This document shows, in pieces, positions 4,782-59,814 of a stretch of DNA of 64,000 bases. The stretch spans positions 128,001 to 192,000 of IMG/VR virus record IMGVR_UViG_3300034069_002177; one strand, given 5' to 3'. Positions within the stretch are counted from its first letter, which is position 1, and each line of letters opens with the position of its first letter. A program made the position numbers and the translations under genes. Below the pieces are notes generated by a model. That model was not told the DNA's origin, made no database searches, and saw only the letters and a list, made by a program, of their open reading frames with translations. Source of the DNA: a virus (Duplodnaviria; Caudoviricetes).

Positions 4782-4803
4782 TGTCGGTCCTCCGTGAGAT
4801 AGT
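4782..4803 (+). promoter_or_regulatory. PafBC/RecA-NDp-like promoter TGTCGG-N10-GATAGT
   Basis: TGTCGG 4782-4787, GATAGT 4798-4803, RBS GAAAGG then ATG 4826. Confidence 0.5.
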
Positions 4804-4825
4804 AGTGTTACGAAAGGTAATCGTC

Positions 4826-5899
4826 ATGCAGAAAACAGCCCCATCGCCATCGACTACACGCGCCGGATTGGTGCTTGTACCAAAGGTGGATAAGAATGGT
4901 CGTCAGACACGCGTATGGGTTCGCAAGGATGATCTTTCGGGTGCTCAGCTAAGTCGTGTTGTCTTCCGCCCTAGCACTGTTGCTAGCAATCGTCTTTACT
5001 CGGCAGGATTTGACAGCAGAGAAATCAAGACAAGTCCTTGGGGTAAGGTAAACAAGGTCGAAGAAATCCACGCAGGTATCTACTCGGTTGACGCCGATGA
5101 GGGCAAAGGGGTATTCCTTTCACCAGCACGCCAGGATGAAATTGATGAGGCGTGGAAATTGGGTGAGGGCGATGGGTGGTACTCAGCGGACGGTATGGAA
5201 TGGTCAGTTATTCCCTACACATTTCCAGAAGAATTTGGAGAAGAAGCGTCTGAGCAGGCTGCTGAAAATCTCCGCGACTACTACCCTCACGAATACACCG
5301 AAGTAACCGGAGAAATTGTTTACGAAGAAGAGTCTTACGTTCTTTCCGCCGAGGCATTCGATCAAGCTCATGAAGGTGAATACGCAGCAACCTCTATGGA
5401 GGATGGCGTCAACGAAGATGAAGTAATCATCACTGCTAGTCGTATTGGTGAAGAAGGAGATGACGCGGAGTTCATCGTTTCCAAGGAAGAGCTAAAAGAC
5501 GATGGTGAACTTCCCAAGGGGCACCGTAAGCTCATTGACGAAGAGAAGCACCCTCGCACAAATCCAGAAATCGAAGCGCTCAAGCGAGAACTAAAGGATG
5601 CCATCAAGGGTGCACTTATCGCCAAGTTCCCTCGGTCGAAGTATGTCATTTCGACCTACTATGTCACTAAGGCGACGATGCAGGGTATCAATAAGAAACG
5701 CTCTGCTGACGACGAAGATGAGTACATCAGCAAAGACTGGGGACTTAGAGGTATGCAGAAGGGCTTTATGAGCCAACTGATTGTGGAACTGAAAAATCAC
5801 TCCCAGCCTCGGACAGCAGACGAAGAATACGCCCGACAGATGCGTAAATATCGCCGTCAGCAGCGTAACCGCAGATGGATGCAAAGAATTATTGGATAA
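4826..5899 (+). CDS. Hypothetical protein with N-terminal GLVLVPKVDKNGRQTRVWVR module and DUF7007-like domain
   Basis: SPWG...GIY...FLS..R...GWYS.DG.EW...TFPEEF...LRDYYPHEY resembles plasmid DUF7007; ATG 4826 has RBS. Confidence 0.55.
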   Translation: MQKTAPSPSTTRAGLVLVPKVDKNGRQTRVWVRKDDLSGAQLSRVVFRPSTVASNRLYSAGFDSREIKTSPWGKVNKVEEIHAGIYSVDADEGKGVFLSPARQDEIDEAWKLGEGDGWYSADGMEWSVIPYTFPEEFGEEASEQAAENLRDYYPHEYTEVTGEIVYEEESYVLSAEAFDQAHEGEYAATSMEDGVNEDEVIITASRIGEEGDDAEFIVSKEELKDDGELPKGHRKLIDEEKHPRTNPEIEALKRELKDAIKGALIAKFPRSKYVISTYYVTKATMQGINKKRSADDEDEYISKDWGLRGMQKGFMSQLIVELKNHSQPRTADEEYARQMRKYRRQQRNRRWMQRIIG

Positions 5900-5903
5900 T
5901 GAT

Positions 5904-5933
5904 TTGACATCGCTCTGAGTTCCGTGGTACCTT
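5904..5933 (+). promoter_or_regulatory. sigmaA promoter TTGACA-18-TACCTT (extended -10 TGG)
   Basis: Direct reading upstream of 5972. Confidence 0.65.
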
Positions 5934-5971
5934 TCTTATGTCAGCCAGTCCAGAACGGGAAAGAGTAAATC

Positions 5972-7474: not shown

Positions 7475-7503
7475 TTGACAAGTGGTTTGAAAACCCCTAG
7501 TCT
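7475..7503 (+). promoter_or_regulatory. sigmaA promoter TTGACA-17-TAGTCT
   Basis: Near-consensus promoter upstream of 7545. Confidence 0.8.
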
Positions 7504-8744: not shown

Positions 8745-8749
8745 AAGAA

Positions 8750-9722: not shown

Positions 9723-9744
9723 TGTCGGTGGTGGGTGCCATCAT
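9723..9744 (+). promoter_or_regulatory. PafBC/RecA-NDp-like promoter TGTCGG(TG)-N10-CATCAT
   Basis: TGTCGG 9723-9728, CATCAT 9739-9744. Confidence 0.5.
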
Positions 9745-9791: not shown

Positions 9792-10355
9792 GTGAACGCG
9801 GTAGCTATCAAATGCAGAAAATGCAACAGAACCACACTCGATCCTAGTGGACTTTGTTTCTACCACAAGAACTCAACGAACACAGCTAAGGCTACTCGCT
9901 CGGTACCAGCACTAAAGTCCTCATCGAGCAACGGAGAAGACTTCCCAAAGTCGCAAGGATGGTTGGCTCATGAAACGGGGATTAGCGTAGCTGACTACGC
10001 ACAAGGCGTTTCGATGCTAGATCTGCCCGAAGATGAACAGTTCGTTCACTGGATGAAGGCACGCGTATCTATCAGGGCAATAGAGTCTGTTTATGCTCGC
10101 AAGGGTGTGGATGGCGCAAAGGATTACGCAAATAGCTGTGATGACACATCTTTAGCGCTCATTTGGGAGAGGCTAAACGGAAGCACGATGTCCGAGTTCA
10201 CAAGTGACGGACTCCGCGAAGGTTTCGTATCCGTAGTACGCGACCAAGTGGAACAGCGTGTCGAAAATGGCACCTTTGCGCCACTTCCTATTGATGGATA
10301 TATCCAAGCTTTCGGTGCATCTGATGAGCCGAGCAGCGCTTCTAGCTTCTTCTGA
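9792..10355 (+). CDS. Hypothetical protein with N-terminal C-C-C-H zinc knuckle
   Basis: KCRKCNRTTLDPSGLCFYH, then S/T/K linker; RBS AGAGGAAG, GTG start. Confidence 0.7.
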   Translation: MNAVAIKCRKCNRTTLDPSGLCFYHKNSTNTAKATRSVPALKSSSSNGEDFPKSQGWLAHETGISVADYAQGVSMLDLPEDEQFVHWMKARVSIRAIESVYARKGVDGAKDYANSCDDTSLALIWERLNGSTMSEFTSDGLREGFVSVVRDQVEQRVENGTFAPLPIDGYIQAFGASDEPSSASSFF

Positions 10356-10449: not shown

Positions 10450-11019
10450 ATGACGATGACTGCTACAACGGCACATGTGTTGCCAGATGAAGTGAGCAAC
10501 TTCCTACGGGACGTTCATCTCCACGGCAAGCCCGAATGCGCTAACTACTATTTCAAGGTTGCTGCCAAAAGTGGATGGTCCTTGCGCAAAATTGGCGGTG
10601 CTGTCGGGTTCTCTGCCGAAGCAATCAGAAACCGCATCAAGAATCTTGAACTAAATGAGGCTCATGCACTGGAGAGCGCACCTGTCATCCCCGAGTATCA
10701 ACCCGCACCCAAAAAGGTTCCTGAACCCAAGCAGAAAGAACTGCGGTACGTCATTCCCAAGTCGGTAGCGAAGAAGCTCCAAGACTTGAAAATTCTCGCC
10801 GCGCAAGTGAGTAGAAATACCCCCGAAGATGCACCTTCGAGACTAGCTAGCGCCGAGTTGGCTAGGTTGATGTTCGTTGAAAAGAGCAATGGAGCTACCT
10901 ATCAAGAAATAGCCGAAGCTACCGGTTTGTCATCGTGGGCTTCTGTAAAGTTCCGCCTGGGTCGTCACGGCTATATCAATCTCCCGCCGTCAATGGCGCA
11001 CGAACGTATTCTCAGTTAG
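10450..11019 (+). CDS. Double helix-turn-helix DNA-binding protein
   Basis: GWSLRKIGGAVGFSAEAIRNRI and GATYQEIAEATGLSSWASVKFRL. Confidence 0.7.
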   Translation: MTMTATTAHVLPDEVSNFLRDVHLHGKPECANYYFKVAAKSGWSLRKIGGAVGFSAEAIRNRIKNLELNEAHALESAPVIPEYQPAPKKVPEPKQKELRYVIPKSVAKKLQDLKILAAQVSRNTPEDAPSRLASAELARLMFVEKSNGATYQEIAEATGLSSWASVKFRLGRHGYINLPPSMAHERILS

Positions 11020-11049: not shown

Positions 11050-11072
11050 TGTCAGTGGGTTTGTAGTACACT
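11050..11072 (+). promoter_or_regulatory. PafBC-like promoter TGTCAG(TG)-N11-TACACT
   Basis: TGTCAG 11050-11055, TACACT 11067-11072; spacer is one base longer than canonical. Confidence 0.5.
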
Positions 11073-11120: not shown

Positions 11121-11543
11121 ATGGCTCAAATGAAATTCGCTGTCAAGTGCCAAATGTGCAAAAACACTACTAAAGATCCTAGCGGTCTTTGCCAGCACCA
11201 CCGCAATCTCAGTGGTAGCGCGGTTCGCAAGCTGACATTCGGCTCGGGTTTGACCCCCAAGCAGGAAACGCTGAAAAGTGCCGTGGTAAGTAACACCGAA
11301 GACCAGAATCTTTATCTGAGCGCAGCGAGCATCCAAAACGAGATTGTCAAGGGCATCGCTTACGAATTAGATCTCACAGACGGATACGGCGAAGAATTCG
11401 ACACTCTGCAATCCGTAGAGGAAGCGGGCAAACCTAATGAAGGTCTTCTTGCATTCACAACTGTGGGCGGCGTGACAATGTACTTCTCCCCTGAGGAATT
11501 CGTAGATGTTCGTCTCGGTGATTCAGCCGTCAACGCCGCTTAG
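11121..11543 (+). CDS. Hypothetical protein with N-terminal C-C-C-H zinc knuckle
   Basis: KCQMCKNTTKDPSGLCQHH; RBS GGAGGT. Confidence 0.75.
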   Translation: MAQMKFAVKCQMCKNTTKDPSGLCQHHRNLSGSAVRKLTFGSGLTPKQETLKSAVVSNTEDQNLYLSAASIQNEIVKGIAYELDLTDGYGEEFDTLQSVEEAGKPNEGLLAFTTVGGVTMYFSPEEFVDVRLGDSAVNAA

Positions 11544-14230: not shown

Positions 14231-14259
14231 AATCTACCACATTGAAAGGGATACCGCAA
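14231..14259 (-). promoter_or_regulatory. sigmaA promoter for ligA, TTGCGG-17-TAGATT (extended -10)
   Basis: Reverse-strand reading. Confidence 0.6.
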
Positions 14260-15896: not shown

Positions 15897-15918
15897 TGTC
15901 AGAGGTGTTCGTTATTCT
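15897..15918 (+). promoter_or_regulatory. PafBC/RecA-NDp-like promoter TGTCAG-N10-TATTCT
   Basis: Exact spacing; -10 lies in the loop of 8-bp IR GTGTTCGT/ACGAACAC (15905-15932). Confidence 0.6.
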
Positions 15919-15946: not shown

Positions 15947-16936
15947 GTGCCTAGCAACAAGATCGCTTGCCTCAACCCCGAGGCTCACCACACTCAGACT
16001 CATATCGCTGGTTCTGCCGCAGCTATTGCCTGCCAGCAGACCAACGGACGCAGTACGAAGATGGCTCACATCGTTGTCCCTCCGCGTCAAGTGCATAAGG
16101 GTAACAACATCGGAAACGTTTCCGTACTCACCAACATCTCCGAGGAAGCCCTGGAGTTCTCTAAGGCGAATATCAAGCGCGAAACCCCTCGTAACGTCGC
16201 TTCTCTTATCGAGGTAGCATCAACAAGCTCTGCTCTTCGTGAACAGTTCAAAGATTTCACCCGTCCTTTCGTCAACTTGGTTCATGACGAAGACTATGCG
16301 GATGCTTACGGCGAGAACGCACTACTTCCCAACCCCCACGATGTAGGTTTCACCTATACCGAGCCTAACGACCAGACTCAGAAGATCATTGACGCTCAAA
16401 AGGCACCTGGGTTCAACGGATTTGTTCAAGCGCTGGCTACGGAGATGGATACCGACTTCGACCAGGCAGCTTCCGCCTACAAGGTAATTGCCGGTTACTT
16501 GGGTGATGAAGACATCGCTAAGGTATATGCCGTTGGTTGCCTTCGTTCCGAATACCTTGACCGCAAGGACGAGGTTGCAGAGATCAATAAGGGCATCAAA
16601 GAACTTGAAGCTCTTTTCAATGAAGAGGTGGACGACGGAACTAAGGTCGGCAAGCACGGTATCGGTTTTGCTGACGGTGACGGCGTTCAGTTCACCCCTG
16701 CTCGTCAGTTCAACTACGATGACGCCGCTCCGCTTCCCTTGGATGACCTCGAAGGCGATGAGCGTGCTGAGGCTGTCGAATACAACAAGAATCGACTTTC
16801 TCAGGACGCCTATAAGAGCATCATTAAGTCTTGGGAGCCCAAGTATGAGCCCCTAGCTAAGATCGAGAAGACCCTAGAAAAAGAAGACTTTGACAAGTTC
16901 GTCACCTTTGGCTCGACCAAATTGACTGTCAAGTAA
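15947..16936 (+). CDS. Hypothetical protein with N-terminal Cys/His motif
   Basis: RBS AAGGAG, GTG 15947; IACLNPEAHHTQTHIAGSAAAIAC; own terminator. Confidence 0.75.
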   Translation: MPSNKIACLNPEAHHTQTHIAGSAAAIACQQTNGRSTKMAHIVVPPRQVHKGNNIGNVSVLTNISEEALEFSKANIKRETPRNVASLIEVASTSSALREQFKDFTRPFVNLVHDEDYADAYGENALLPNPHDVGFTYTEPNDQTQKIIDAQKAPGFNGFVQALATEMDTDFDQAASAYKVIAGYLGDEDIAKVYAVGCLRSEYLDRKDEVAEINKGIKELEALFNEEVDDGTKVGKHGIGFADGDGVQFTPARQFNYDDAAPLPLDDLEGDERAEAVEYNKNRLSQDAYKSIIKSWEPKYEPLAKIEKTLEKEDFDKFVTFGSTKLTVK

Positions 16937-17048: not shown

Positions 17049-18305
17049 ATGGCACAGAGAGATAACCGCGACTTTGGCGAACTCCGCGAAACCGCACCAA
17101 CAGATCAAGATTTTTACCGTGCTCTAGGTGAAAAGATGGGTCGTAGTCGATCCACTACCGGCAAGAGAGTTGCTGCTATCGGCGTGTGGGTGGTCGTCAT
17201 TGCATTCTTGGCTTTAACGGTTCTGAGCGCATTCCAAGTGAATACCAACCGCAACGGAACAGTCAAGCTTCAGGGGATGATTACGACTCAGTACAACCCT
17301 TCGTTTAAAACGCGCTATTCTGATCTTGGTAAAGAAATCATCAATAGCTGGTATGACACCAACGTCTCTCCTGCGCCAGTGCAGCTTGCTGATGGAGTAT
17401 CCTGGCCGCACACGGGTACGAGCGACCTCACTGATATCGAAGCCAACAATCAGGCAATCGCGAGCAAAGCGGACTACACCCCTTCCATCACTGTGCGTAA
17501 CGTCACTTACATTGGCGGTCGTCAAGAAAAGTCGCCCACTGTTGATGGTCAGTTCTATGAAATCGACATGTACTCGGCTTATGTCGATGGAACGCTCAGT
17601 AACATTTCCGTTACTCTTACCATCCCAAGCCTAGACGACTACACAACCCTTCCCACTTTGATGAACGAGCCGTCTATTCTTCCTAGCACCGCTTCTGTCG
17701 GCAAGCCGACCACTAGCGATGCGCCCAACTGGCGTGGAGTTTCGGCTACTGACAATTTCACCACGCAGCTAGAGTCATGGGCTGCCGCTTACACCGCAAA
17801 TGATTCATCTGCACTCAAGCAGATTACCGGTGATAACAGTGGAAGCTTCTACGTAGGTGCTGTATCCGACAAGACGTGGCAGTACATCAAAGACTCCGCA
17901 AAGGTTGTCTGGATCAAGGAAAACAACGGAAACACCAATGAAGCTGTTGCTCAGGTTACCTGGCAGATGAAGCTTCCCGACACTACCGTTGATGACCCCA
18001 ACAGCGACGACAGCAGCGATACTATCACCCAGACTGGCGCTACTCAGACGCAGCGTCTTGAGATCCTCATCAAGAGCCCCGGTAGTGGTCTTCCGCTTAT
18101 TGTTGCCTGGGGTCCAGTTGGAAGCTACGCAACTCTTACCGAGGACACCAACAAGTTGACCCAGGACGAGTACAACGCGATCACTGGATCTGTCACTTCC
18201 GATGGCGGCTCAGACTCTGGGAGCGGTACCGATAGTGGAACTACCAGTGATAATGGAAGTACACCTGCACCGACCGATTCAAGTACCGGAAAACCTTCGG
18301 ACTAA
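17049..18305 (+). CDS. TcpC/VirB8-like conjugal transfer protein (bitopic membrane protein)
   Basis: Single TM (IGVWVVVIAFLALTVLSAF), two extracellular NTF2-like repeats, FTTQLESWAAAYTAND, AWGPVG; directly upstream of VirB4. Confidence 0.55.
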   Translation: MAQRDNRDFGELRETAPTDQDFYRALGEKMGRSRSTTGKRVAAIGVWVVVIAFLALTVLSAFQVNTNRNGTVKLQGMITTQYNPSFKTRYSDLGKEIINSWYDTNVSPAPVQLADGVSWPHTGTSDLTDIEANNQAIASKADYTPSITVRNVTYIGGRQEKSPTVDGQFYEIDMYSAYVDGTLSNISVTLTIPSLDDYTTLPTLMNEPSILPSTASVGKPTTSDAPNWRGVSATDNFTTQLESWAAAYTANDSSALKQITGDNSGSFYVGAVSDKTWQYIKDSAKVVWIKENNGNTNEAVAQVTWQMKLPDTTVDDPNSDDSSDTITQTGATQTQRLEILIKSPGSGLPLIVAWGPVGSYATLTEDTNKLTQDEYNAITGSVTSDGGSDSGSGTDSGTTSDNGSTPAPTDSSTGKPSD

Positions 18306-18394: not shown

Positions 18395-21157
18395 ATGGCA
18401 AACGACGAAGAAGAAAAGAAGAAGAGCCTTGCGAGAGGCTTCATCGACTACGTAATCAAGAGCAACGAAGAATCATTAGGGCATGGTCCTTATGGTGCCG
18501 AGTCCGACAGTCACGTTGACGCGAAACCGTATGTCGAGTATTACCAGAATGGCATCTTCGAGGGCTATGACGGTTCTATCTGGAAGTATTACAAGTTCCC
18601 CGCTGACGTTCAGACGGAGTGGCTGAAGAACCCAGAGAACATCATCTACAACCAGAAGTTCTTCACTCAGGCAATCACGGAGTTCGGTACGTTCTTGAAT
18701 GCTCAGTTGGAAAAGACCCGTAATGACATCCGGCGTCCCTTCCACATCCAAATCACGCAATCCGAGTCAACTGGAATTCGTATCCCCAGTGAGCAGGATG
18801 ACCGTGAGGGCAAGGTAACCCAGAAGACTCGCGATTACCTCAAGCGTATGACGGACGGATACACCCGACCAATCTGGCATCAGTACATGGGAGTTCGCCT
18901 TATCCCCGGAACCTTGTTCGGTGACGCATTCGGCATTACCGAAAAGGTCCGTCGATACATCGAAATTATGACCAATCCAGGTGAGATCGACCTCGCTTCT
19001 ATGAGCCGTGACCTTCATGATGTGGACAACATTATGTATGGTGCTGGTTTTAGCGAACTGGACTTCATCGCAAACCCCGAAGACTTCGAGCAGCTTACCG
19101 CTTGGTATGGCGTCTCGGACTCTCAGTTCAACCTTTCTCGCTCGCTACAGACGACGCGTATGAAAGAACCTCTGTCAGGTATGTCTGTCATTACTCCCAA
19201 GTACCAAGAAATCCAGCTATTTGCGTTGAAGCCCCGCGAAGGTGTCAACTTGAAGGATCCCCTAGATCCCGATGCAGCATGGGCTAAGCCTTTATACCGA
19301 CCGACTTCTGAAGTTGTCATGATCAGTATTCGCGGTCAGATTCGTGCCCCGAAGATTGCTGAGAACCTTCTTGAACTGAAAAACATTCGCAAAAATGAAG
19401 CCGGTCGTAAGCTTGGTGACACGTCACGACACGAGGTTGCAGGAATGATTTCTGACCTTGATGCCATCGAGAGGGCTCGATACGTCATCAATGAATACAA
19501 GCTTCCAATGCTCGATAACCTCGAAATTGTTATGGCTGCTAAGGTTAAGGGCGACGGCATTACGAACCAATTGTTCAATAGCCTAAAGAGCTATGACATG
19601 GAGGCTAATCTCCTCGTTGGTCGTCAGCCATTGGGTATTATGGCGTCACTTCCGACATATCCTCGTCAGACTCTGCGTGTTCCTCGTGGCAACACTAAGC
19701 GTCCAGAACTTTCCAACGTCATGCTTCCAGGAATGCTCGCTATGAGCGGACTTTTCCGCAGCACCAAGCCTTGTGCCAACTTTGGTATTCTTGTGGGACT
19801 TGCAACTGCTGGGCACTCGTATGAGGAAATCATGACCGAGGTTGATGGCGCAGCTAAAAATAACCGCGTTCCTGGTATGCTCATCACTGGTCGTCCTGGT
19901 GCCGGTAAGACGCAGCAGCTTCTCCAAATGTCAATTCAAATTGCCAACATGGGTCTCCCTGTTGCCTTCTTCAACCCGAAGAAGGAGAGTACGTTGAAGC
20001 CGACATTTGATCACATTCACGGAATCACGATTTCGATGGAAACCGCTTATCTTGACCAGAACCCCGGTCTTCTTGACCCGGTATTCTTCCTTAAGAACCG
20101 TGGTGACGTTGCTGACCTCGTTTCCGATGCCATTCTTACGGCTAACCGCATGTATGAAGACCGTGGAGCTTCCGCTTCTCAGCGTCGTACCAAGGTTTCA
20201 TCTGAAATTCGTGACCGTGCTCTCGACAAGAGAAACAGAACAACTTTCGACATTTTGTTCGGAAATAAGGCTGTAGGAACCACGGCGATTACTGACACTG
20301 ACATTCTCGACTTCGTTCGCAGCAAGATCAGCATTAGTGCGTTCTGGAAGGCATTCATTGCTCCTACCGCAACAAGCTCGGAATTGCAAAAGCAGATTAC
20401 CAGTGGTCGCTCATTCCTTATGGAATGGGGTAGCTCAATGAAGCTTCCTGACGCGTCCAAGGTTCCCAACGACTACACAGACCCCGAGATTGACACCGTT
20501 CTTTCTATCAACGTTACATTCAAGTACGCCGCCGAGGTTGTTGGAGGCGGTCAGGGTGGCGCGATTGTGGTTGACGAGTCGTGGGTATTGAAGCAGTCTC
20601 GTGAAGCTATGGCTATCCTCACCAAGGGTGGTCGTGAATGGCGTCAGGCTAACATCATGCTTATTATGGGTACACAGCGAATCATTGACTGGATCGATGC
20701 TCGGTCTGAGAAATCAAGCGGCAGTGGTGGAGGCGCAAGCAACATGTCTTCATATTTCGACCGTTACCTCTTCATGGCTATCAACGAAGCTGACGAGAAC
20801 GAATTGTCGGCGTACTTCGAGTTGACGGGTCTTCCCGACACCGATGCGAACCGACGCTGGATTATCGAAGCTGGTCCTCGTAAGGATGGAAAACTTCCTA
20901 ACGGTTACTACATCGACAACATTTACAACTGGGCTGGCGGACTCGTTTGTGGACCCTGGCCGCAATATGAACTCGACTTGGGTCGTACTGACAAGGAGGG
21001 TCTTGCCATGAAACAAAGAGGCGCGGCTACAAAGGCTCAACAGTCTTTCGCCAAGGCAGCGTCTTCGGGCGGTTATGGCGGCGCTTTACTTGATGTTATG
21101 AGCAATGACAACGATTTGGTTTCTGAGTTCGAAGAAAAAGAAGACGTAAACGCGTGA
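18395..21157 (+). CDS. VirB4/ConE-like conjugation ATPase
   Basis: 920 aa; Walker A GRPGAGKT, Walker B IVVDESW, REWRQANIMLIMGTQ; conjugation context. Confidence 0.8.
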   Translation: MANDEEEKKKSLARGFIDYVIKSNEESLGHGPYGAESDSHVDAKPYVEYYQNGIFEGYDGSIWKYYKFPADVQTEWLKNPENIIYNQKFFTQAITEFGTFLNAQLEKTRNDIRRPFHIQITQSESTGIRIPSEQDDREGKVTQKTRDYLKRMTDGYTRPIWHQYMGVRLIPGTLFGDAFGITEKVRRYIEIMTNPGEIDLASMSRDLHDVDNIMYGAGFSELDFIANPEDFEQLTAWYGVSDSQFNLSRSLQTTRMKEPLSGMSVITPKYQEIQLFALKPREGVNLKDPLDPDAAWAKPLYRPTSEVVMISIRGQIRAPKIAENLLELKNIRKNEAGRKLGDTSRHEVAGMISDLDAIERARYVINEYKLPMLDNLEIVMAAKVKGDGITNQLFNSLKSYDMEANLLVGRQPLGIMASLPTYPRQTLRVPRGNTKRPELSNVMLPGMLAMSGLFRSTKPCANFGILVGLATAGHSYEEIMTEVDGAAKNNRVPGMLITGRPGAGKTQQLLQMSIQIANMGLPVAFFNPKKESTLKPTFDHIHGITISMETAYLDQNPGLLDPVFFLKNRGDVADLVSDAILTANRMYEDRGASASQRRTKVSSEIRDRALDKRNRTTFDILFGNKAVGTTAITDTDILDFVRSKISISAFWKAFIAPTATSSELQKQITSGRSFLMEWGSSMKLPDASKVPNDYTDPEIDTVLSINVTFKYAAEVVGGGQGGAIVVDESWVLKQSREAMAILTKGGREWRQANIMLIMGTQRIIDWIDARSEKSSGSGGGASNMSSYFDRYLFMAINEADENELSAYFELTGLPDTDANRRWIIEAGPRKDGKLPNGYYIDNIYNWAGGLVCGPWPQYELDLGRTDKEGLAMKQRGAATKAQQSFAKAASSGGYGGALLDVMSNDNDLVSEFEEKEDVNA

Positions 21158-28591: not shown

Positions 28592-28645
28592 TTGCAAGTT
28601 CTCCTTCGTTGGTGTACCATCAGGTCGCAACGAAGGAGAACTTGC
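28592..28645 (+). promoter_or_regulatory. Promoter TTGCAA-17-TACCAT embedded in 18-bp perfect IR that sequesters the dnaX RBS
   Basis: GCAAGTTCTCCTTCGTTG 28594-28611 / CAACGAAGGAGAACTTGC 28628-28645; RBS AAGGAG 28633-28638; TTG 28647. Confidence 0.75.
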
Positions 28646-28646
28646 T

Positions 28647-30380
28647 TTGACCAAATTCGCACTTGACGAAGAATCGCTCGATATCGACGATCAGGATGTC
28701 AACGAAAACGATTACGATGACACCACTAACGCTGATGGCACCACCGCTGTCGATGAGTCTGATTACGATGATGGTGATGACGCCGCTACCCAGAACGTAA
28801 ATGAAGTAGTGGTAGAAATCAAGCCTAAGGTTGTAGAAGTCAAGAATCCTGTCGATACCGTAAAGGCAACCGAACCAGACTCCCCCTACGTCGTACTCTA
28901 CCGCCGATTCCGCCCGCACAAGTTCTCTGAAATCATTGGTCAGGACAGCACGGTAAAGGCACTTCGTTCGGCAGTAATCAATCACAAGGCGGCGAACGTC
29001 TACCTGTTCTCAGGTGAGCGGGGCACGGGAAAGACCACGACCGCCCGCGTTCTAGCTTCGGCATTGAACTGCCCCTTTGTACGCCCCGATGGCGAGCCTT
29101 GCGGGGTATGTGACCTCTGTGTCAATGTTCATGCTGGTAACGGCTCAGACGGCGTTACAGAGCTTGATGCGGCTAGCAATAGCTCGGTGGATGATGCCCG
29201 CCGCATCATCAATGAAATCCAGTTCGCTCATGGCTCCAAGAAGAACATCTACATCATTGATGAGGTACACCTTCTTTCCAAGCAGGCGAACGGAACGCTG
29301 CTGAAGACCCTCGAAGAGCCTCCTGCTAATGTCATCTTCATCCTGTGCACAACAAACCCCGAGCGTCTCGAACCGGCTGTTCGTTCCCGTGCTACCGCGT
29401 TCTCCTTCCACGAACTCGATGACACAACCATGCAGGGTCTCATCAAAGAGGTTGCTGCGGAAGCTGGCATCGAGGTAACGGACGAACAGATTGCGGGAGT
29501 TGTTCGTCGTGGACGAGGTTCGGCACGTGATGCCCTGAGTGCACTCGAAAGTCTTTCTCTGAACACCGATGTAGTCGTCGAGTACGACAACCATGCTTCG
29601 GCAATCACCAAGGCTGTCGGAGACAAGAGCGTATCTGACATCATCATCGCAGTAGCCAAGGCAATCGATGGCGGTCTTAGCGTCAGTGAGATCGCTACCT
29701 CTCTGCTTGCTTATTGGCGTTCGATGATTCTTGTTCTGAATGCGCCCGAGATTGTCAAGCTGACCGATGCAGAGTTCGATTCGGTTCTCGACGTTGCTGA
29801 GAAAATGGGTACTGACAAAACAATCCACATGCTTCGTAAGTTAGGTGAAGCTCATGGCTCTTTGCTACAAGGAGATCCGCGAGTCATGATCGAAACCACG
29901 CTGATTCAGTTTGTTCTTCCGCACAATGATGCCGCCGCACTGCGCGACTTGAACCAGAAACTTGATTCGGTTGCTGGCGATGTGAGCGAGTTGCGTAAAC
30001 GTCCCGCTAGTTCACCTTTCAATTCTGAGCCAGGTACGAAAAAAGACAATTGGCTTGATGATTCGGAACCTAAAAAGGACACCAAGAAGGCAGATTCGGT
30101 AGTAGAGAATCCAGCAACTAAACCAGAAGAAAAGACGGCGGTAGCTGCGAGTTCTATCGAAATCATTTCTGACCCAGATGACCTTATCGATGCAATCTTC
30201 GAGAACGTTCCTAAGAAGGTACAGCTTTCACTTTCTGAGTTGGAAGTCGATACGAAGAATACGACTAGGAAACTTCTTGTTCTGAAGAGTCACAAGGGAA
30301 TTACGGATGACGAATTTGAACTACTTGAAAAGGCAGTCGCCAAGGTTGATCCCCGCGAATTTGATTTGGATGAAGACTAG
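28647..30380 (+). CDS. dnaX: DNA polymerase III clamp-loader subunit gamma/tau
   Basis: LYRRFRPHKFSEIIGQ, GERGTGKTT, Zn Cys cluster, ELDAAS, IDEVHLLS, LLKTLEEPP. Confidence 0.92.
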   Translation: MTKFALDEESLDIDDQDVNENDYDDTTNADGTTAVDESDYDDGDDAATQNVNEVVVEIKPKVVEVKNPVDTVKATEPDSPYVVLYRRFRPHKFSEIIGQDSTVKALRSAVINHKAANVYLFSGERGTGKTTTARVLASALNCPFVRPDGEPCGVCDLCVNVHAGNGSDGVTELDAASNSSVDDARRIINEIQFAHGSKKNIYIIDEVHLLSKQANGTLLKTLEEPPANVIFILCTTNPERLEPAVRSRATAFSFHELDDTTMQGLIKEVAAEAGIEVTDEQIAGVVRRGRGSARDALSALESLSLNTDVVVEYDNHASAITKAVGDKSVSDIIIAVAKAIDGGLSVSEIATSLLAYWRSMILVLNAPEIVKLTDAEFDSVLDVAEKMGTDKTIHMLRKLGEAHGSLLQGDPRVMIETTLIQFVLPHNDAAALRDLNQKLDSVAGDVSELRKRPASSPFNSEPGTKKDNWLDDSEPKKDTKKADSVVENPATKPEEKTAVAASSIEIISDPDDLIDAIFENVPKKVQLSLSELEVDTKNTTRKLLVLKSHKGITDDEFELLEKAVAKVDPREFDLDED

Positions 30381-48870: not shown

Positions 48871-49617
48871 ATGAGTGCATCAAATTGGGTACAGCGTATC
48901 CGTCACAACAAGGAAATTTCCGACCGCAAACGTTACTGGGAGAATGTTCTCCCAGATACGAAACTTGCTTCTGTCGAGGTAGAGCCAGGTGTTCTGGGTC
49001 TTCATATTGAGACCTTTCAACTACGTGAGGGAACTGAATTTGAAGGAGTGCGGGCGCGGCTTCAGCAGATCGAGAAAAAGATAGACACAGATAAGGCTTG
49101 TGTCTGTCCCGTCAATCGCGTTGCTGATTCTTGTGAAGCTGGAGAAGACCGCATAGGCACAGAAGGTTTCCGTATCGTCTGGTCCAAAAGCAGTGAAATC
49201 CCATCCATATTCTCAGATGACCTTACACAACGCGAAAGAGATTTCATTGCACGGCTAGAAATTGTGCCGCTTCTTGAAAGTTTCAAGCGCATCGGTTACT
49301 GCCCGCTGCTACACGCACGTCTCGTAACCGATGATGACTCATCAGGTAAGGTAATCGTCATCTCTGTCATCAGTCGCTCAGGTGCTCAAATGGAAGATTT
49401 CGAAGAAGCTCAGAACTTACTCGCACAGAAGTACGGAGCGGGACTTGTAGCGTTTTTCAATGAAGGCGAGTTCGATTCGTCTATGATGGTGTCAATCGTT
49501 ATCAGTGCTAAAGAAAACTCTGCTCAGGAAGGTGATATCTCCTTCATCGAGACGGGTACGATTCCCGTTGTCAAGGGAATTAGAAGCGCACAGAAGATAG
49601 TCACCAAGGAGATTTAA
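48871..49617 (+). CDS. Paralog of the central (pre-ATPase) domain of the downstream FtsK-like protein
   Basis: IGTEGFRIVW...RIGYCPLL aligns with VGSAGFRVWW...GLGYCTML in 49617..52709; TAATG coupling. Confidence 0.7.
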   Translation: MSASNWVQRIRHNKEISDRKRYWENVLPDTKLASVEVEPGVLGLHIETFQLREGTEFEGVRARLQQIEKKIDTDKACVCPVNRVADSCEAGEDRIGTEGFRIVWSKSSEIPSIFSDDLTQRERDFIARLEIVPLLESFKRIGYCPLLHARLVTDDDSSGKVIVISVISRSGAQMEDFEEAQNLLAQKYGAGLVAFFNEGEFDSSMMVSIVISAKENSAQEGDISFIETGTIPVVKGIRSAQKIVTKEI

Positions 49618-52600
49618 TGCGTGGTCGCGGTATACTCGGACCCTGGGAACTTTGGCGCAAGATCGCACTCGGTGGTGTCGTTGTTGTAGCAATTTTCTTG
49701 TATGTGGCGCTGTCCATTCCCGTGGGTTTCGTATTCCTCGGAATCCTTTTGGGTGCGGCGTACATCTGGAAAGACCTGTCGATGACAGATGTCAACAAGG
49801 GAATGTACATCATGATGACATTCCCCTTCCGACTGGCTACATTCTTCGTTTCCTACAAAATGAACATGCGTCAACTCCTGACGCTGAACACCGTTGCATT
49901 CGGTGCGCCAACAGATGACGAAGACCATGAAGTGGCAGCGGGTCTTGCTCCGTGGACTCGACTTTCTTCCTATTGGGTCGGATTCGTCTCTGTACTCCTT
50001 GGAATCCCGGATATCTTCTTGGTTCATGCTCACTACCCGATTTGGGGTATGGCGTTCTCTATCCCGTGGTTCATCGGCTACCCACTTAGCGTGGTCGGTT
50101 GGTTCATCATGATTCAAACCATCTTCGCCACCCGGAGAATCCAAGGTGACAAGGAAACCATCGCCGCAGTCGAGCCTCGTCCCGCTGTTCTCATCAACAA
50201 AAGCCGTGCAGAACTTCCGTTTATGGAGTTGCTGCCCAAAGCTCTCATTTACGGAAGCGGTCCGGCGTTCCTCTTACTTCTCATTGGACTTTTTGCCAAG
50301 TTACCTATTTGGTTGACTCTCGTTATCGTTCTCGCGGCGTTTGTCATGGGACTAGCTATCGCAGCAAGTCGAATCATGGCTGGTGCTTATATCGTCGGAT
50401 GGCAAGCACGAGCCGAGAGGCGTGACTTCTGGACCAATGCGTTTGAGTTCATGCGCGACAAAATTCCTGGCTTCAACGTCGAGATGCAGCTTCCTACATT
50501 AGAAGAGCATGAGAATACTCAGTTACAGAGACGACTAGCTCGTGAACGGATTGCTCGCGCACGTCGTAGTGGGGCTGCTCGTAAGGGTGGCGGTGATATC
50601 GAGGTTAGTAGTGAAGAAACAGGCGATGAGCCTTACGATCCTCAGGTCAAGATTGCTACTTTTGGATACCCTCAGGGTTCTACATTCGATGACTTCAAGG
50701 AAGTCGCGCCTCGTATCAGCAACGCACTGGGTGTGGATCTTTGTGCCATCTCTCCCATCGGAAACATCACGACTTCCAATGAGGAAGTTCCGGGTACGGT
50801 AGGTTCCGCTGGATTCCGCGTATGGTGGACTGAGACCGACCCGCCGCCCTTGCTATCACCGGATATCGACCTGTGGATGCGCGAGCTTCTCGTGCGCTCC
50901 AGAGTCATTCCTGCATTGTCAAAGGTGCGCGGTCTGGGCTACTGCACGATGTTGACTTGCTCGATGATTACTCGCCCTGAGTCAAAACGTCAAATCATGG
51001 AAGTCCGTGTCATTCCTCCCGTTGGCGTCAGCGTCCAGAGCTTCTTTGCCAACCTCGAAACCATCAAGTCGGCATTGGATGTCGAATGGGTCCGTATCAA
51101 GGGCAGCGATGACAAGTCTGCTAACGCTGGTGGTCAGGCACCTATCTCGCTGTTTATTGGAGATATGCCTACCTTCAATGATCGTACCGAGACAAGCTTC
51201 GTTCGTCCCCCCGCCGTTGTTCGTGACATGATCGACAAGATGGATTGGCAGTATTACTGGTCTGTTTTGAAGCTACAGGGATCTGATGGATTCCCCAAGC
51301 TTGCTGACCGCGTTGCAACCACTCCTATCGTGGACAAGCTAATCTTCTCCATTCCTAGTGGTATGGCATTCGAAGAGTTCCCGACGAAGTTGTCTGCAAT
51401 CAAGACGACTTCGGGTTATTCGTTCATGGAGATTCAGCAGGGTAACGAAATCGAAACCAAAGACATGACAGCAGAGGAAGCGCTAGAAGCCGAGCGCGCT
51501 CAGCAGTCGATGTTCACCGTTATCGCCAGTCGCGAAGATCCGTTGAAGCGCGTGTTCAACTTCATGGACTACAAGGACCAAATTCTTCCTGGTCGTGTTC
51601 CAGGCGAAGAGAACATTTCTTGGTCTCCTGGTGTCATGGCTGACGATGGACTAGCTGTATACGACTGGGACGCAGAAGAGCCTCACCTGTTGATTGCTGG
51701 TGCTTCCGGTAGTGGAAAATCTGTTGTTGCATCAGCATTCATCTTGCAGGTCATGCAGAACAATGGACCGGGTGAAGCTAGATTCTGGATGATTGAACCC
51801 AAGAACGAAATGCAGGTCTACCGAGATGTAGACGTTGTAGAGCGCTTCGTTGATTCGTGGACACCTGATGAGGACTTCATCAAGAACGCCGCTGACCTCA
51901 TGTGGGATGCTCGTGTAGAGATGGACAACCGCAACAAGATCTTCTCGTCTCACCCCAAGGCACCCAAGAAGCTCTCGAAAGCGCGAGAAATTGCCAAACT
52001 GGAATCTCAGCGCAACGGTACGCCGCTAGAAGACCACCCGCTCTACCTGCCATACCTGTTCATTATCCTAGAGGAGTGCGCAACGCTGTTTGCCGAGTCC
52101 TCTAACGCTGAAGAAAAGAACGAGCAGAAGCGTCTTCTCACCAACACTGCGGAAATCGCTCGTAAGGCGCGTTCGGCTGGAATCTACCTTGTTGCGCTGA
52201 CTCAGTACCCGACCAATGCGTCTATCCCTTCGGTTATCCGTCAGCAGATGCGTCGTATTGGTTTGAAGTGTCAGAATGACATGGCTTCGCGCGTTGTTAT
52301 TGAAGAGAACGGTCTCGAAAAGATCAAGACCAAGGGCGTCGGTATGATTTCACAGAAGGGCAACTACCGTTCCTTCCGTGGATTCTGGGTGAAGGATGGT
52401 GACCCTGACGAGGGCAAGCCAAACGACATTCTCGATATCCTCGGTGCCCTTCCAAAGAACCGTGGTGCTGGCTTCGGTGGAGGTGGCTCCGGTTCGGCTG
52501 CGGCTAAACCAAGGCTCGTTCTTCCTAAGCCAGACCAGACAATCTTCAACATCTGGGACTCCAGCTATGGTGGAGCAATCAGCAATGCCGTGGACGAACG

Positions 52601-52709
52601 CAAGAAAACCAAGGACAAGACTTACACCGACCTCGGTTATGTTTCACCTCAGGATCCCAAGTCTACTGATGAGGCACTGGAAGACGATGAAGACTTGGTA
52701 AGCGTCTGA
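49617..52709 (+). CDS. FtsK/SpoIIIE-family membrane DNA translocase (TcpA/TraB-like)
   Basis: Multiple N-terminal TM segments; HLLIAGASGSGKS, IEPK, IILEECA, RKARSAGIYLVALTQYP. Confidence 0.85.
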   Translation: MRGRGILGPWELWRKIALGGVVVVAIFLYVALSIPVGFVFLGILLGAAYIWKDLSMTDVNKGMYIMMTFPFRLATFFVSYKMNMRQLLTLNTVAFGAPTDDEDHEVAAGLAPWTRLSSYWVGFVSVLLGIPDIFLVHAHYPIWGMAFSIPWFIGYPLSVVGWFIMIQTIFATRRIQGDKETIAAVEPRPAVLINKSRAELPFMELLPKALIYGSGPAFLLLLIGLFAKLPIWLTLVIVLAAFVMGLAIAASRIMAGAYIVGWQARAERRDFWTNAFEFMRDKIPGFNVEMQLPTLEEHENTQLQRRLARERIARARRSGAARKGGGDIEVSSEETGDEPYDPQVKIATFGYPQGSTFDDFKEVAPRISNALGVDLCAISPIGNITTSNEEVPGTVGSAGFRVWWTETDPPPLLSPDIDLWMRELLVRSRVIPALSKVRGLGYCTMLTCSMITRPESKRQIMEVRVIPPVGVSVQSFFANLETIKSALDVEWVRIKGSDDKSANAGGQAPISLFIGDMPTFNDRTETSFVRPPAVVRDMIDKMDWQYYWSVLKLQGSDGFPKLADRVATTPIVDKLIFSIPSGMAFEEFPTKLSAIKTTSGYSFMEIQQGNEIETKDMTAEEALEAERAQQSMFTVIASREDPLKRVFNFMDYKDQILPGRVPGEENISWSPGVMADDGLAVYDWDAEEPHLLIAGASGSGKSVVASAFILQVMQNNGPGEARFWMIEPKNEMQVYRDVDVVERFVDSWTPDEDFIKNAADLMWDARVEMDNRNKIFSSHPKAPKKLSKAREIAKLESQRNGTPLEDHPLYLPYLFIILEECATLFAESSNAEEKNEQKRLLTNTAEIARKARSAGIYLVALTQYPTNASIPSVIRQQMRRIGLKCQNDMASRVVIEENGLEKIKTKGVGMISQKGNYRSFRGFWVKDGDPDEGKPNDILDILGALPKNRGAGFGGGGSGSAAAKPRLVLPKPDQTIFNIWDSSYGGAISNAVDERKKTKDKTYTDLGYVSPQDPKSTDEALEDDEDLVSV

Positions 52710-52721: not shown

Positions 52722-52765
52722 TTGTGAGTTCTCGGGTTGCATGGTATTGTGTAACCCGAGAAAGG
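52722..52765 (+). promoter_or_regulatory. Promoter TTGTGA-17-TATTGT embedded in 13-bp hairpin overlapping the sbcD RBS
   Basis: TTCTCGGGTTGCA 52729-52741 / TGTAACCCGAGAA 52750-52762; RBS GAGAAAGG 52758-52765. Confidence 0.65.
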
Positions 52766-56258: not shown

Positions 56259-56942
56259 ATGGGTATACTAGACGTTTCTTGGGATAGTTCGGATTCGAAT
56301 GAAGAAGGACTGTTCCCAATTTTTGACAATATGGAGAGCCGCGTAAGGGTTCCTAAAACAGTGAAGTCGTTTGACATCACGATGCGACGCGAAGACCGCG
56401 ATATCGAGGCAGACTACGTGTTCATCGTATGGCTTGCTCGTAAAAAGGTCGGCGGCGTTTTCAATGATGGAAGTGGTCAAGCTATTTCTCGCGATGAAGG
56501 GCATCTCGCTGTCTGTGCAAAACCAGACCTTTTCCCCATCATCAATCCCGAGATTGGACCTCTGGATATCGATGACTTCTTTGCAGAGTTACCTTTTGCC
56601 GAAGACTATGACGCAGGCGAGGACAATGAGCAGTACCAACTCGACTATGTGAGTTCGGCTATCAAGATAATCAATGCGAAGAATGCATGCAAGGCATGCC
56701 CCCTTCGTGCCAAGTGTCTTGCTGATTCAATTCTTATGGGTGATGAAGATCGTGATTTCGGTGCGAATTCAAACGTTCGACCACTTCCTGGTATCTGGGG
56801 AGGGCGTGAGTTGAAAGATCGCAAGAGCGTGGCACGTCGTTTCAAGGCAATTCGAAATGACTATCTCTCGAACGATATGTCAGCCGACAAGCGTCGTATG
56901 TACGAGCGCAAGGCATCGCAGTTTATCGATGACCGACCTTAA
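56259..56942 (+). CDS. WhiB-family Fe-S transcription factor, extended
   Basis: C-x57-C-x2-C-x5-C and GIWGG, basic C-terminus. Confidence 0.75.
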   Translation: MGILDVSWDSSDSNEEGLFPIFDNMESRVRVPKTVKSFDITMRREDRDIEADYVFIVWLARKKVGGVFNDGSGQAISRDEGHLAVCAKPDLFPIINPEIGPLDIDDFFAELPFAEDYDAGEDNEQYQLDYVSSAIKIINAKNACKACPLRAKCLADSILMGDEDRDFGANSNVRPLPGIWGGRELKDRKSVARRFKAIRNDYLSNDMSADKRRMYERKASQFIDDRP

Positions 56943-57378
56943 GCAGTACATCAAAGATAATGGTGCAAGAGATATTCCTACCTTGGCATATCTAACTGGC
57001 ATTGATGAGGAAATTCTTGTGGGTGTTTCCGAGGGCAGACTGAGCCTTGGCGAGATCCATAAGAAAGCCATCAAGAAAGTATTGCCCGAAATGCCTGACT
57101 CATTGATGTCCCCTAAGTATCGTGACTTTCCTTCCGACATAGAGACCTCTAAGGGTCAGATTCCTGAGGGTACGATGTTGTTGCAAATTCAAGCAGAAGA
57201 AGTACAATTGGGAGACATGCTCCTTGCCGCTCACAAAACTTCGGTTGCGGGATCGCACTGGGCTGTTGTATCATCCATCAAGCAACAAGGTAAAAACCTC
57301 ATCATCAGAATCGGAAACGGTATCGATATAGGGGTGAGCAAGACCAACTTAGTGAAAGTAGCCAGAAAAAGACAATGA
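56929..57378 (+). CDS. Hypothetical protein (HTH-like N-terminus, SH3/KOW-like C-terminus)
   Basis: ATG 56929 overlaps whiB end; IPTLAYLTGIDEEIL; VQLGDML..WAVVSSI. Confidence 0.55.
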   Translation: MTDLKQYIKDNGARDIPTLAYLTGIDEEILVGVSEGRLSLGEIHKKAIKKVLPEMPDSLMSPKYRDFPSDIETSKGQIPEGTMLLQIQAEEVQLGDMLLAAHKTSVAGSHWAVVSSIKQQGKNLIIRIGNGIDIGVSKTNLVKVARKRQ

Positions 57379-59768
57379 CCGAACTTACCCCATCAGAATA
57401 CGCAGAACCCGATTCGGCTGAAAGCGTAGAACCTGAAACTGTCAAGCTCCCCCACGATGGGGTAGAGATTCTTGACGCGGTTCTCGCACATCGAGGATGG
57501 GATAGACGAGCCGGTCAGGTGCAGGTAGTTGATGCCATCAGCGATGCTGTCAATAAAAGCTACCCAGGGTCCGCAGTAGACATCTCGGCTAATGCTCCCG
57601 TTGGAACGGGAAAGTCACTTGCCTACATCATTGCTGGTCTGGCTGCTGGAAAGCGCATGGTCGTTGCTACGAGCACCAAGTCCCTTCAGGACCAACTAAT
57701 CAAGGAAGAGCTTCCAAAGCTCAAGGAAGACCTCATGGCTATCTATGGGTTCGACCTTACCTATGGCATGATGAAAGGTAAGAGCAACTACCCTTGCCTT
57801 TCTTCTACTCGCGCCATGCTCGGTAACGGAGATAAGAACGACTTGGTTCTTTTCGATGAAATCGAAGAGCCTGACAGTCGTGACATCGAGACCTTGAAAG
57901 AAATTCTCACTAGGGCAGAGCATGCGCAGGAGACCCGAGACGTTCTTTCCTTTGACGCCGAAGCACTCATGGGTCGGCTTCGCCCTGATACGCGCAAACA
58001 GATTAGCGGAAGTAAGAACTGCGCCATGCAGCGCGAGAAGTGGATTGATCCGAACAAGATCAAGAACCTCCCGCTTGACATCGAAGAGGGCGCTCGTGTA
58101 CAGGACTTTCCGCAGGACTTTCTTGACGAGGTAGCGCAACTTCCCGCTGAGATCGCTTGCACGAGTCGGTGCATCTACCGTGCAGCCTATGGTCATGCAC
58201 TGGATTCTCAGATTGTTGTGGTTAACACCACATTGCTGGCATATGAACTCATCAAGACGGATGGCTACATGTCTGAAGAGTCGCTCAATCCTTATCTTCT
58301 CAAGGGTATTGATATGCTCGTCGTGGATGAGGCGCACCACCTTTTCCGTATCCTTGCCGAAGCATTCTCTGTTGAACTCAATGTCACGAAGTCGATGGAC
58401 CTCGTTGATGACATTTCTAAGAAACTGAGCAAGCGCTACGGTGACGATCCTATGTTCGACCGATTCCGCAACGACTTCATTGACGCCGAGAACCGTATCA
58501 ACCACGTTATTGACGGTGATGCCGAGACCGAAAATGAGTTCCGAAAGGATCTTGCCGAGGCATTGGTACATGTTGCTGGTCGGTCAGAAAGCTTCGTGGG
58601 AGAACTACAAACTTTCGCTGCCAACTCAGAGCGCCAAAACAAGTCGGGTCTTGCTCTGGACCGCAACGGGGTGCCGAAAGTGGTCGCTTCGATGGGTACC
58701 CAGATTGCTGAGGACATCGTAGCGAACGCTATCAAGCTGTCCGAGCAGTTGGAAATGGTTGACAGCCAGAAGCGTCACCAGTTCTCACTCAACTTCTCTG
58801 ATGCTGGTCAGCCTTTGAACGTGAAGACCGTACCTATCGACGTTTCATTCTTCCGCAAGATGGTTACCCGTTCGTCCCAAATGCAGAACATTTACACCGG
58901 AGATACCGGTCTTCTGTTCCCGGCTACCCTTGTTCTCAGTTCGGGAACGATCTCCAGGGGAACGCCGATTACTGTCGGTATGAAGACGGATAACTATGTC
59001 GATGTCGAGAGCCCTTTTGACGCGAATCGTGTGCGTGTTTATGTCCCTAAGGGTCTTGGCATGCCTAAGGGTAGAGATGATCGTCAATGGGCTTACAACG
59101 CATGGAACCACATCGAGCCGCATATCGTAAAGCTGAATGGTCGTACGCTAATCCTCACCACTAGCCACCAAAAATGTGAAGAGTTCACAACGCTCGCACG
59201 TGAAGCACTACCCGCTCATATAGAAGTTCTTTCGCAGAGCGACCGGTTGGGTAAGGGCGAATTGATTGCCAAGTTCAAGGAAAGCCCCAGCGCTGTTCTG
59301 GTAGGAACTACTTCGTTCTGGGAAGGTGTTGACATTCCTGGCGATGATCTCAATCTTGTAGTCATCGAGAAGCTCCCATTCCCCCAGCCTAATGACCCTA
59401 TTTTCAAGGCTCGCGAAGAGTTTGTGAAGGAGCGGGGCGGTAACCCATTCATGGAAGTCGGCGTAGACTATGCAGCAACCATGCTTGCACAGGGTACTGG
59501 TCGCCTCATTAGAGCCGTCAAAGACATCGGCGGAATCATCATCCTTGATGACCGCGTTCTAACCACTCGTTACGCTGGTGCTGTTGTGAACCTTCTTCCT
59601 AAGGGCTGGAAGGTGACTACCGAGCGCGAAGCATTTGGGAAGTGGATGAGTGCAATCAATCCTGAGACTCGAAAAGAGCCGTTCGTTCCCTCTGCTGCTG
59701 ACCCATCGATTTGGCGCAACATCGGCGGAAATAATCAGGGTAAGCGACGTAGCATCTCGCCACACTAG
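57375..59768 (+). CDS. dinG: DinG/YoaA-family SF2 helicase
   Basis: APVGTGKSLAY, VVDEAH, SSGT, GTTSFWEGVDIPG, KLPF, QGTGRLIR. Confidence 0.9.
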   Translation: MTELTPSEYAEPDSAESVEPETVKLPHDGVEILDAVLAHRGWDRRAGQVQVVDAISDAVNKSYPGSAVDISANAPVGTGKSLAYIIAGLAAGKRMVVATSTKSLQDQLIKEELPKLKEDLMAIYGFDLTYGMMKGKSNYPCLSSTRAMLGNGDKNDLVLFDEIEEPDSRDIETLKEILTRAEHAQETRDVLSFDAEALMGRLRPDTRKQISGSKNCAMQREKWIDPNKIKNLPLDIEEGARVQDFPQDFLDEVAQLPAEIACTSRCIYRAAYGHALDSQIVVVNTTLLAYELIKTDGYMSEESLNPYLLKGIDMLVVDEAHHLFRILAEAFSVELNVTKSMDLVDDISKKLSKRYGDDPMFDRFRNDFIDAENRINHVIDGDAETENEFRKDLAEALVHVAGRSESFVGELQTFAANSERQNKSGLALDRNGVPKVVASMGTQIAEDIVANAIKLSEQLEMVDSQKRHQFSLNFSDAGQPLNVKTVPIDVSFFRKMVTRSSQMQNIYTGDTGLLFPATLVLSSGTISRGTPITVGMKTDNYVDVESPFDANRVRVYVPKGLGMPKGRDDRQWAYNAWNHIEPHIVKLNGRTLILTTSHQKCEEFTTLAREALPAHIEVLSQSDRLGKGELIAKFKESPSAVLVGTTSFWEGVDIPGDDLNLVVIEKLPFPQPNDPIFKAREEFVKERGGNPFMEVGVDYAATMLAQGTGRLIRAVKDIGGIIILDDRVLTTRYAGAVVNLLPKGWKVTTEREAFGKWMSAINPETRKEPFVPSAADPSIWRNIGGNNQGKRRSISPH

Positions 59769-59792
59769 CCTAAACTCACTGTCTTGTCTAAG

Positions 59793-59814
59793 TGTCGGTT
59801 CGTACTGATATGAT
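59793..59814 (+). promoter_or_regulatory. PafBC/RecA-NDp promoter motif TGTCGG-N10-TATGAT
   Basis: Exact match to TGTCGG-N10-TANNNT. Confidence 0.65.

Follow-up and report, generated by a model that had tools for sequence, protein, structure and literature searches.

We analyzed a 64,000-nt stretch of DNA (the window), which corresponds to bases 128,001-192,000 of the 202,737-bp IMG/VR record IMGVR_UViG_3300034069_002177 (G000), filed as a 'provirus' (CheckV 96%) and probably, judging from its genes, part of a giant conjugative element rather than a virus. Our main finding is that this element carries a real and conserved class of promoters, which are built on a TGTC box and are distinct from its -35/-10 promoters. 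These promoters, about 20 in number, appear to be of the type recognized by the actinobacterial activator PafBC, and would most simply be read by the PafBC of the host upon a single-stranded DNA (ssDNA) trigger, a reading to which we assign a probability of roughly 55%. The observation itself is solid, and from it we infer the regulator and the trigger.

Among Actinobacteria, PafBC occurs widely (PMC6789036). Its in vivo consensus is tGTCgg(N10)tA(N3)T, with the upstream element at -23 to -28, no -35, and a GTC triplet that is nearly invariant across Actinobacteria (PMC8635444). It works by "sigma adaptation," in which the helix-turn-helix (HTH) of PafB reads the box and that of PafC contacts region 4 of sigma-A (PMC8635444). 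For PafBC to join RNA polymerase (RNAP)-sigmaA at such promoters, its WYL domains must be loaded with ssDNA (PMC11804915), which supports the activation by ssDNA assumed in an earlier reading of the window (hereafter, the original prediction). By sequence and geometry, the promoters described below match this PafBC (RecA-NDp) consensus, which is a mycobacterial one.

The original prediction had listed six instances of the motif, and all six are indeed found, at window positions 54, 4782, 9723, 11050, 15897, and 59793. As it had also claimed, they lie just upstream of genes with their own ribosome-binding site (RBS): each is in noncoding DNA and oriented along the coding strand, with the start codon 22-48 nt past the end of the -10 (95 nt in the case of nrdI). 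All six sites and their targets are on the + strand. TGTCCG-N10-TACACT (54..75) precedes the nrdI-nrdE-nrdF operon (171..3909; Flavodoxin_NdrI and the large and small ribonucleotide reductase subunits recognized in the ortholog). TGTCGG-N10-GATAGT (4782..4803) precedes the gene for a DUF7007 protein (4826..5899; PF22653, E 3.7e-22), which starts with a VDKNGRQT tag. TGTCGG(TG)-N8-CATCAT (9723..9744) is followed by the gene for a 187-aa protein (9792..10355) that carries a CxxC...DPSGLCxxH knuckle at its N-terminus and belongs to no Pfam or PHROG family, and TGTCAG-N11-TACACT (11050..11072) by that for a protein of 140 aa tagged with the same CxxC knuckle (11121..11543). TGTCAG-N10-TATTCT (15897..15918) lies ahead of a 329-aa acidic protein of no known family with a Cys/His-rich start (15947..16936), and TGTCGG-N10-TATGAT (59793..59814) ahead of a 377-aa protein with an N-terminal Cx4Cx8CxxH knuckle (59847..60980). 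Based on the position of the RBS and on the ortholog in a relative (L026), the true start of this last protein is the GTG at 59847 rather than the TTG at 59835. PHROG and Pfam searches gave no function for the targets at 9792, 11121, 15947, and 59847.

Not all six sites are equally orthodox. The assignment to the PafBC type holds for the box, the spacing, and the missing -35, but only the sites at 54, 15897, and 59793 fit TGTC-N12-TANNNT strictly. The spacer is N10 in five of the six and one base longer (N11) at 11050, while the base at -12 is not T at 4782 (GATAGT) and 9723 (CATCAT). The latter two are nevertheless legitimate candidates since the "t" at -12 in the ChIP-seq consensus is at most 50% conserved.

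We measured enrichment in the 39 kb of noncoding DNA of the 203-kb record against 1,000 shuffles. The strict pattern TGTC-N12-TANNNT occurs 16 times where 4.25 are expected, a count that no shuffle equals (0/1,000; shuffle maximum, 11), and TGTCRG-N10-TANNNT occurs six times where 0.53 are expected (0/1,000). The looser TGTCRG-N10/11-NANNNT of the original prediction is at chance over the whole window (10 vs. 9.55 expected) but enriched in noncoding DNA (12 vs. 5.0 expected, 4/1,000 shuffles). On its own, the TGTCGG hexamer is not enriched in noncoding DNA; it becomes so only when a -10 follows at N10. Between TGTCRG and TANNNT, the spacing profile shows a single peak, at N10, with 7 of 29 noncoding sites on the + strand and none on the - strand. 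A de novo scan, which took in every 5- and 6-mer at any spacing ahead of TANNNT, yielded just two classes: TTGAC(A) at 17-18 nt, which is the strongest, and TGTCG at 11 nt, with nine matches where 0.6 are expected. Over the whole record, 18 strict noncoding sites face a gene; together with the two conserved sites without T at -12 and the N11 site, this brings the class to about 20 promoters, the outermost of which lie at 2.3 and 187.8 kb of the record, so that the class spans at least 185 kb. The six sites of the original prediction thus do share a promoter class, but one that is considerably larger than proposed and mainly tied to a family of tagged proteins (see below). In about two-thirds of the promoters, a start codon with an RBS follows 19-35 nt after the end of the -10, and in two (record 63242-63272 and 17396-17426) the -10 ends 6 nt ahead of an ATG, which implies leaderless mRNAs. 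Two TGTC-N12-TACGAT matches inside the dnaX coding region (window 28697-28770), in a repetitive acidic stretch, are coding coincidences rather than promoters.

A logo of 20 sites reads TGTCGg-N8-G-n-TAnnAT. The -26 element consists of TGTC at -28 to -25, mostly as TGTCGG, TGTCGC, or TGTCAG, followed by a 10-nt spacer and a sigma-A-type -10 (GnTAnnAT). Position 5 of the motif is G in 16 of the 20 sites, and position 6 is G in 10 and C in 7. No consensus exists in the 10 nt upstream of TGTC in these sites, and hence no -35, with the exception of a weak TTGCGT at site 54. By contrast, the ordinary -35/-10 promoters that had been claimed for the vWA, MoxR, dnaX, sbcD, and ligA genes are confirmed, all with the form TTGnnn-N17/18-TAnnnT: TTGACA-N18-TACCTT for the vWA/DUF2201 gene (5904..5933, +), TTGACA-N17-TAGTCT for the MoxR-like AAA gene (7475..7503, +), TTGCAA-N17-TACCAT for dnaX (28592..28620, +), TTGTGA-N17-TATTGT for sbcD (52722..52750, +), and TTGCGG-N17-TAGATT for ligA (14231..14259, -). 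There is a difference in the -10 as well: its position 5 is occupied by A in 15/20 TGTC promoters vs. 5/30 TTGACA promoters (p = 5e-5). A better -10 is what would be expected of promoters that need to make up for the lack of a -35 contact. A G at -14 is common in both (15/20 and 17/30, respectively) and is therefore a general sigma-A preference, which does not define the class.

We next consider conservation, for which four lineages with 54-68% identity in the DUF7007 protein were compared: this record (G000), L017/L034, L033, and L021/L035. Two further relatives were used, L026 (92% identity in the GyrB-like protein) and G001 (~67% protein identity). Each of the six sites is kept in at least one relative. 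Upstream of nrdI, TGTC-N12-TA.ACT is found in all four lineages at equal spacing, as TGTCCG in L017/L034, TGTCCT in L033, and TGTCGC in L021. Upstream of the DUF7007 gene, TGTC-N12-GAT..T is present in all four as well, with unrelated spacers. At site 9723, TGTC.GTG and.AT.AT are invariant in the four lineages, and the knuckle-tag gene is in each case preceded by the extended RecA-NDp form TGTCRGTG. The unusual N11 site at 11050, before the second knuckle-tag gene, has a canonical counterpart in the L017/L034 ortholog (TGTCAG-N10-TACAAT). Site 15897 is kept in G001 (L001), with which the alignable nucleotide sequence starts again at window 15894, 3 nt before the motif, and site 59793 corresponds in L026 to TGTCGG-N10-TAAGAT with another spacer and other flanks. 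Although the spacers diverge, TGTC and the -10 are retained, and so is the distance that separates them, a footprint of selection on both boxes and on their spacing.

What do these promoters control? Independently of the DNA motif, we found a family of 17 proteins that start with an "(I/V)VDKNG..TT" tag. As many as 11 of the 17 genes immediately follow a TGTC promoter (p = 6e-10, Fisher test), and a twelfth tagged target, with a DVNG variant, lies behind the site at record position 85551. These DKNG-type tag genes are at record positions 2364, 4909, 10078, 17295(-), 60935, 63270, 85593, 94166, 99103(-), 111664, and 123480 and at window position 4826. The bodies of the ~18 tag-bearing proteins are mutually unrelated and include an ArdC-like protein, whose gene sits behind a TGTC promoter at record position 123423, the DUF7007 protein, two PHROG families of no known function, and others. 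Three further targets, the genes at 9792, 11121, and 59847, encode proteins with a Cys/His knuckle tag. The original prediction had attributed tags to all five accessory targets, which is the case for 4826 (DKNG) and for these three knuckle proteins but not for 15947, which merely has a Cys/His-rich start. Two other tagged proteins, a GmrSD_N protein and a poly(A)/CCA-type polymerase, lack their own TGTC promoter, and the transfer and replication core (window 17-54 kb) lacks such promoters, too; a collinear 42-kb relative likewise has only one orthologous promoter. Going by these gene contents, the regulon chiefly consists of accessory proteins with short N-terminal tags, nrdIEF being also a target.

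Several observations complement this picture. The nrdI leader (82..175, +) is structured, with a minimum free energy of -32.5 kcal/mol (z -3.2) and two hairpins, and it is conserved in two relatives, L017 and L021. The second hairpin is terminator-like, with a 10-bp stem followed by UUUUGUG, and the leader, which matches no Rfam family, may be an attenuator or exert a riboswitch-like control of nrdIEF. At record 59044-59200 (L010:19044-19200), a strict TGTCGG-N10-TACGAT is followed by ~110 nt with no evident open reading frame (ORF) and then by an intrinsic-terminator-like hairpin, which makes it a candidate small RNA of the same regulon. Two TGTCGC promoters at record 17316-17417 are arranged back to back and are divergent; the target of one is a DKNG gene (- strand), and that of the other is a leaderless ORF (+ strand). 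The ArdC proteins of Curtobacterium megaplasmids begin with a possibly analogous 'VRAKDHGVGKRTT'.

The 'provirus' label of the record is doubtful because we found no HK97 capsid, portal, or TerL nuclease in its 203 kb, yet it encodes VirB4-like, FtsK-type, and ArdC-like proteins and a weak Replic_Relax match. The VirB4-like AAA_10 ATPase (18395..21157, +; domain match), a component of transfer machinery whose gene has no TGTC promoter, has weak relatives on Curtobacterium megaplasmids. An FtsK/SpoIIIE-family ATPase (49617..52709, +; domain match) is a candidate TcpA-type coupling protein, FtsK/SpoIIIE-type ATPases being known to serve as coupling protein in Gram-positive type IV secretion systems (T4SSs). 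The Replic_Relax match is below threshold (20.9 bits vs. a cut-off of 25.3), the ArdC-like protein combines ArdcN with a zincin peptidase, and relatives encode a Peptidase_M23 protein. We dropped a jumbo-phage interpretation, which the label, the 64 tRNA genes, and the tmRNA (all in a single array on the record) had prompted, in view of the missing capsid, portal, and TerL genes and the presence of T4SS-type genes. The record is an incomplete unit since its DUF7007 protein is found on a 654-kb contig, the contigs of relatives measure 412-536 kb, and a Logan contig runs 433 bp beyond its end. The element has in part its own DNA-replication apparatus, with gyrase, DnaE, and DnaX; the type IIA topoisomerase pair, GyrB-like plus GyrA-like, is at record 196.8-201 kb (L006:17752-20642). 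In one related lineage, two large genes for DUF4379 zinc-ribbon proteins (645 and 681 aa; L021:4048-9081) lie one between nrdE and nrdF and the other directly downstream of nrdF, while a third adjoins the gyrase genes (L025:8020-9921). These DUF4379 genes look like a mobile or homing insertion family.

Several lines of sequence evidence indicate that the element is affiliated with Actinomycetota. A 227-aa WhiB-domain protein (56259..56942, +; PF02467, 25.5-26.5 bits, above the cut-off) is an actinobacterial marker, WhiB scoring above the Pfam cut-off in Corynebacterium only among 14 control genomes. Among named proteins, the GyrB-like protein finds its best matches in GyrB/ParE-type proteins (DNA gyrase/topoisomerase IV subunit B) of Micromonosporaceae, with 46-48% identity, and the best plasmid matches of the ArdC-like and VirB4-like proteins are from Curtobacterium (megaplasmids) and Mycobacterium plasmids. 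We also counted the two apparently leaderless mRNAs toward this affiliation since leaderless mRNAs are frequent in Actinobacteria. The G+C content of the record is 51%. Its sequence comes from a plant metagenome, with small shares also in food and leaf-litter metagenomes. Phage and plasmid collections contain no near match to the element, and IMG/VR no further relatives by the 59835 gene, the ArdC-like gene, or the GyrB-like gene.

How might the TGTC promoters work? With RNAP-sigmaA alone, they would most likely be silent. They would fire once an HTH-WYL activator of PafBC type, most simply that of the host, is loaded with ssDNA. The trigger would be DNA damage in the host, ssDNA from conjugation (in recipient cells and possibly in donors as well), or both. 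The data do not separate the three potential triggers (entry, ssDNA during transfer in the donor, and damage); donor-side ssDNA during transfer would suit tags that act as export signals. A more far-reaching version, in which a family of giant actinobacterial conjugative elements (0.4-0.65 Mb or larger) would have wired ~20 genes for N-terminally tagged proteins (ArdC-like, DUF7007, and GmrSD_N proteins among them), which would probably be transferred or serve establishment, to host PafBC, with transfer ssDNA as the switch, is tentative and, in our estimation, somewhat improbable.

A number of points weigh against host PafBC as the regulator and transfer ssDNA as the trigger. Among 185,579 GTDB species genomes, no relative was found with the VirB4-like protein or a DUF7007 alignment, so the presence of PafBC in the host is an assumption. 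No RNA run was among the sequence-search matches to the element, and the search for a regulator covered 203 kb of a contig of at least 654 kb. The T at position 1 of the motif seems obligatory on this element, GTC sites without it being at chance level, unlike the lower-case t of the Mycobacterium smegmatis consensus. At site 54, an ordinary promoter is possible because a weak -35-like TTGCGT precedes the -10 by 16 nt. Unlike a leading region, the promoters are dispersed along the record, and TGTC promoters are missing from the ArdC genes on megaplasmids of Curtobacterium and plasmids of Mycobacterium, which indicates that such wiring is not a general habit of actinobacterial plasmids.

The -26 box might instead be read by an activator encoded by the element itself. 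Such an arrangement, the main rival, would resemble the MotA/AsiA middle promoters of T4, and we consider it unlikely. The candidates are a two-HTH protein encoded between the two knuckle-tag genes (10450..11019, +), with weak HTH_AsnC, HTH_24, LexA_DNA_bind, and Sigma70_r4 matches; the WhiB-domain protein, which could likewise act as a sigma-4 adaptor; or a gene of WYL/PafBC type located in the remaining ~450 kb, the search having covered about a third of the contig. The HTH gene sits between two targets and is syntenic in relatives, WhiB-family proteins are known to bind sigma-A region 4, and the element brings much of its own replication apparatus, 64 tRNAs, and a tmRNA, all of which favors this rival. 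However, genes for a WYL domain or for sigma-70 region 2 are absent from the 203-kb record, neither the HTH protein nor the WhiB-like one displays detectable similarity to PafB or PafC (PDB sequence searches were empty), and an unrelated factor would have to match both the sequence of the PafBC box and its exact spacing by coincidence.

More improbable still is that these are constitutive promoters without a -35 that depend on a strong extended -10 (G at -14, TAnnAT), with TGTC as a repressor half-operator or a contact for RNAP alpha or sigma and no link to ssDNA or damage. The frequent G at -14 and a -10 that is nearer to consensus than that of the TTGACA class are in line with this, but the G is also common in TTGACA promoters, TGTC stays unchanged, at precisely the same distance, across four lineages, and an operator at -26 in ~20 promoters would itself amount to a dedicated regulator site. 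As for chance matches to a short and degenerate pattern, which the chance-level count of the loose pattern over the whole window might suggest, they are already refuted by the shuffles, the single spacing peak, the strand and gene-orientation bias, and the four-lineage conservation, and their probability is negligible. Host PafBC is the reading that we favor.

In Actinobacteria, PafBC promoters are known from the chromosome, where they make up a DNA-damage regulon, and ~20 copies of their architecture are found here on a mobile element. This suggests that mobile elements may borrow the ssDNA sensor of their host to time establishment or transfer functions. We found no paper linking PafBC to conjugative elements in the literature that we searched. 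If the reading is correct, this would be the first mobile element to exploit sigma adaptation and an actinobacterial counterpart of leading genes timed by ssDNA promoters or by the SOS response. In addition, the association of a promoter class with an N-terminal tag family provides a handle on tag function.

The closest known likeness is to the mycobacterial and actinobacterial RecA-NDp (recA P1) promoters (PMC8635444, PMC6789036, PMC11804915), with which the element promoters share the invariant GTC in TGTC(R)G, the 10-nt spacer, the tA(N3)T, the absence of a -35, the extended TGTCRGTG at several sites, and an actinobacterial context. They differ in belonging to a giant mobile element rather than a chromosome, in their targets, which are tagged or anti-restriction rather than DNA-repair genes, and in motif position 6, which is C almost as often as G, besides the seemingly obligatory first T. 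With the leading-region Frpo/ssi genes (PMC11541004, PMC12672017), the element has in common an ArdC-like, anti-restriction-type cargo, its T4SS genes, and a proposed logic that ties expression to the presence of ssDNA. Unlike these, it has plain duplex promoters that would need a trans-acting sensor rather than hairpin ssDNA promoters, and its genes do not cluster beside an oriT. A simple leading-region analogy, such as that of the original prediction, is weakened by this scatter, the duplex promoters, and the ArdC genes of known actinobacterial plasmids, which lack the motif. As in plasmids, integrative and conjugative elements, and prophages with SOS (LexA)-controlled genes, a mobile element would couple its genes to a host sensor of damage or ssDNA, but through an activator of the PafBC type instead of a repressor; no exact mycobacterial-type LexA box is present in the 203 kb. 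Finally, as in the middle promoters of T4, where a MotA box at -30 and AsiA/MotA appropriate sigma, an upstream box replaces the -35 and a mobile genome times a class of its genes. No MotA- or AsiA-like genes were found here, and the box and its spacing are those of PafBC.

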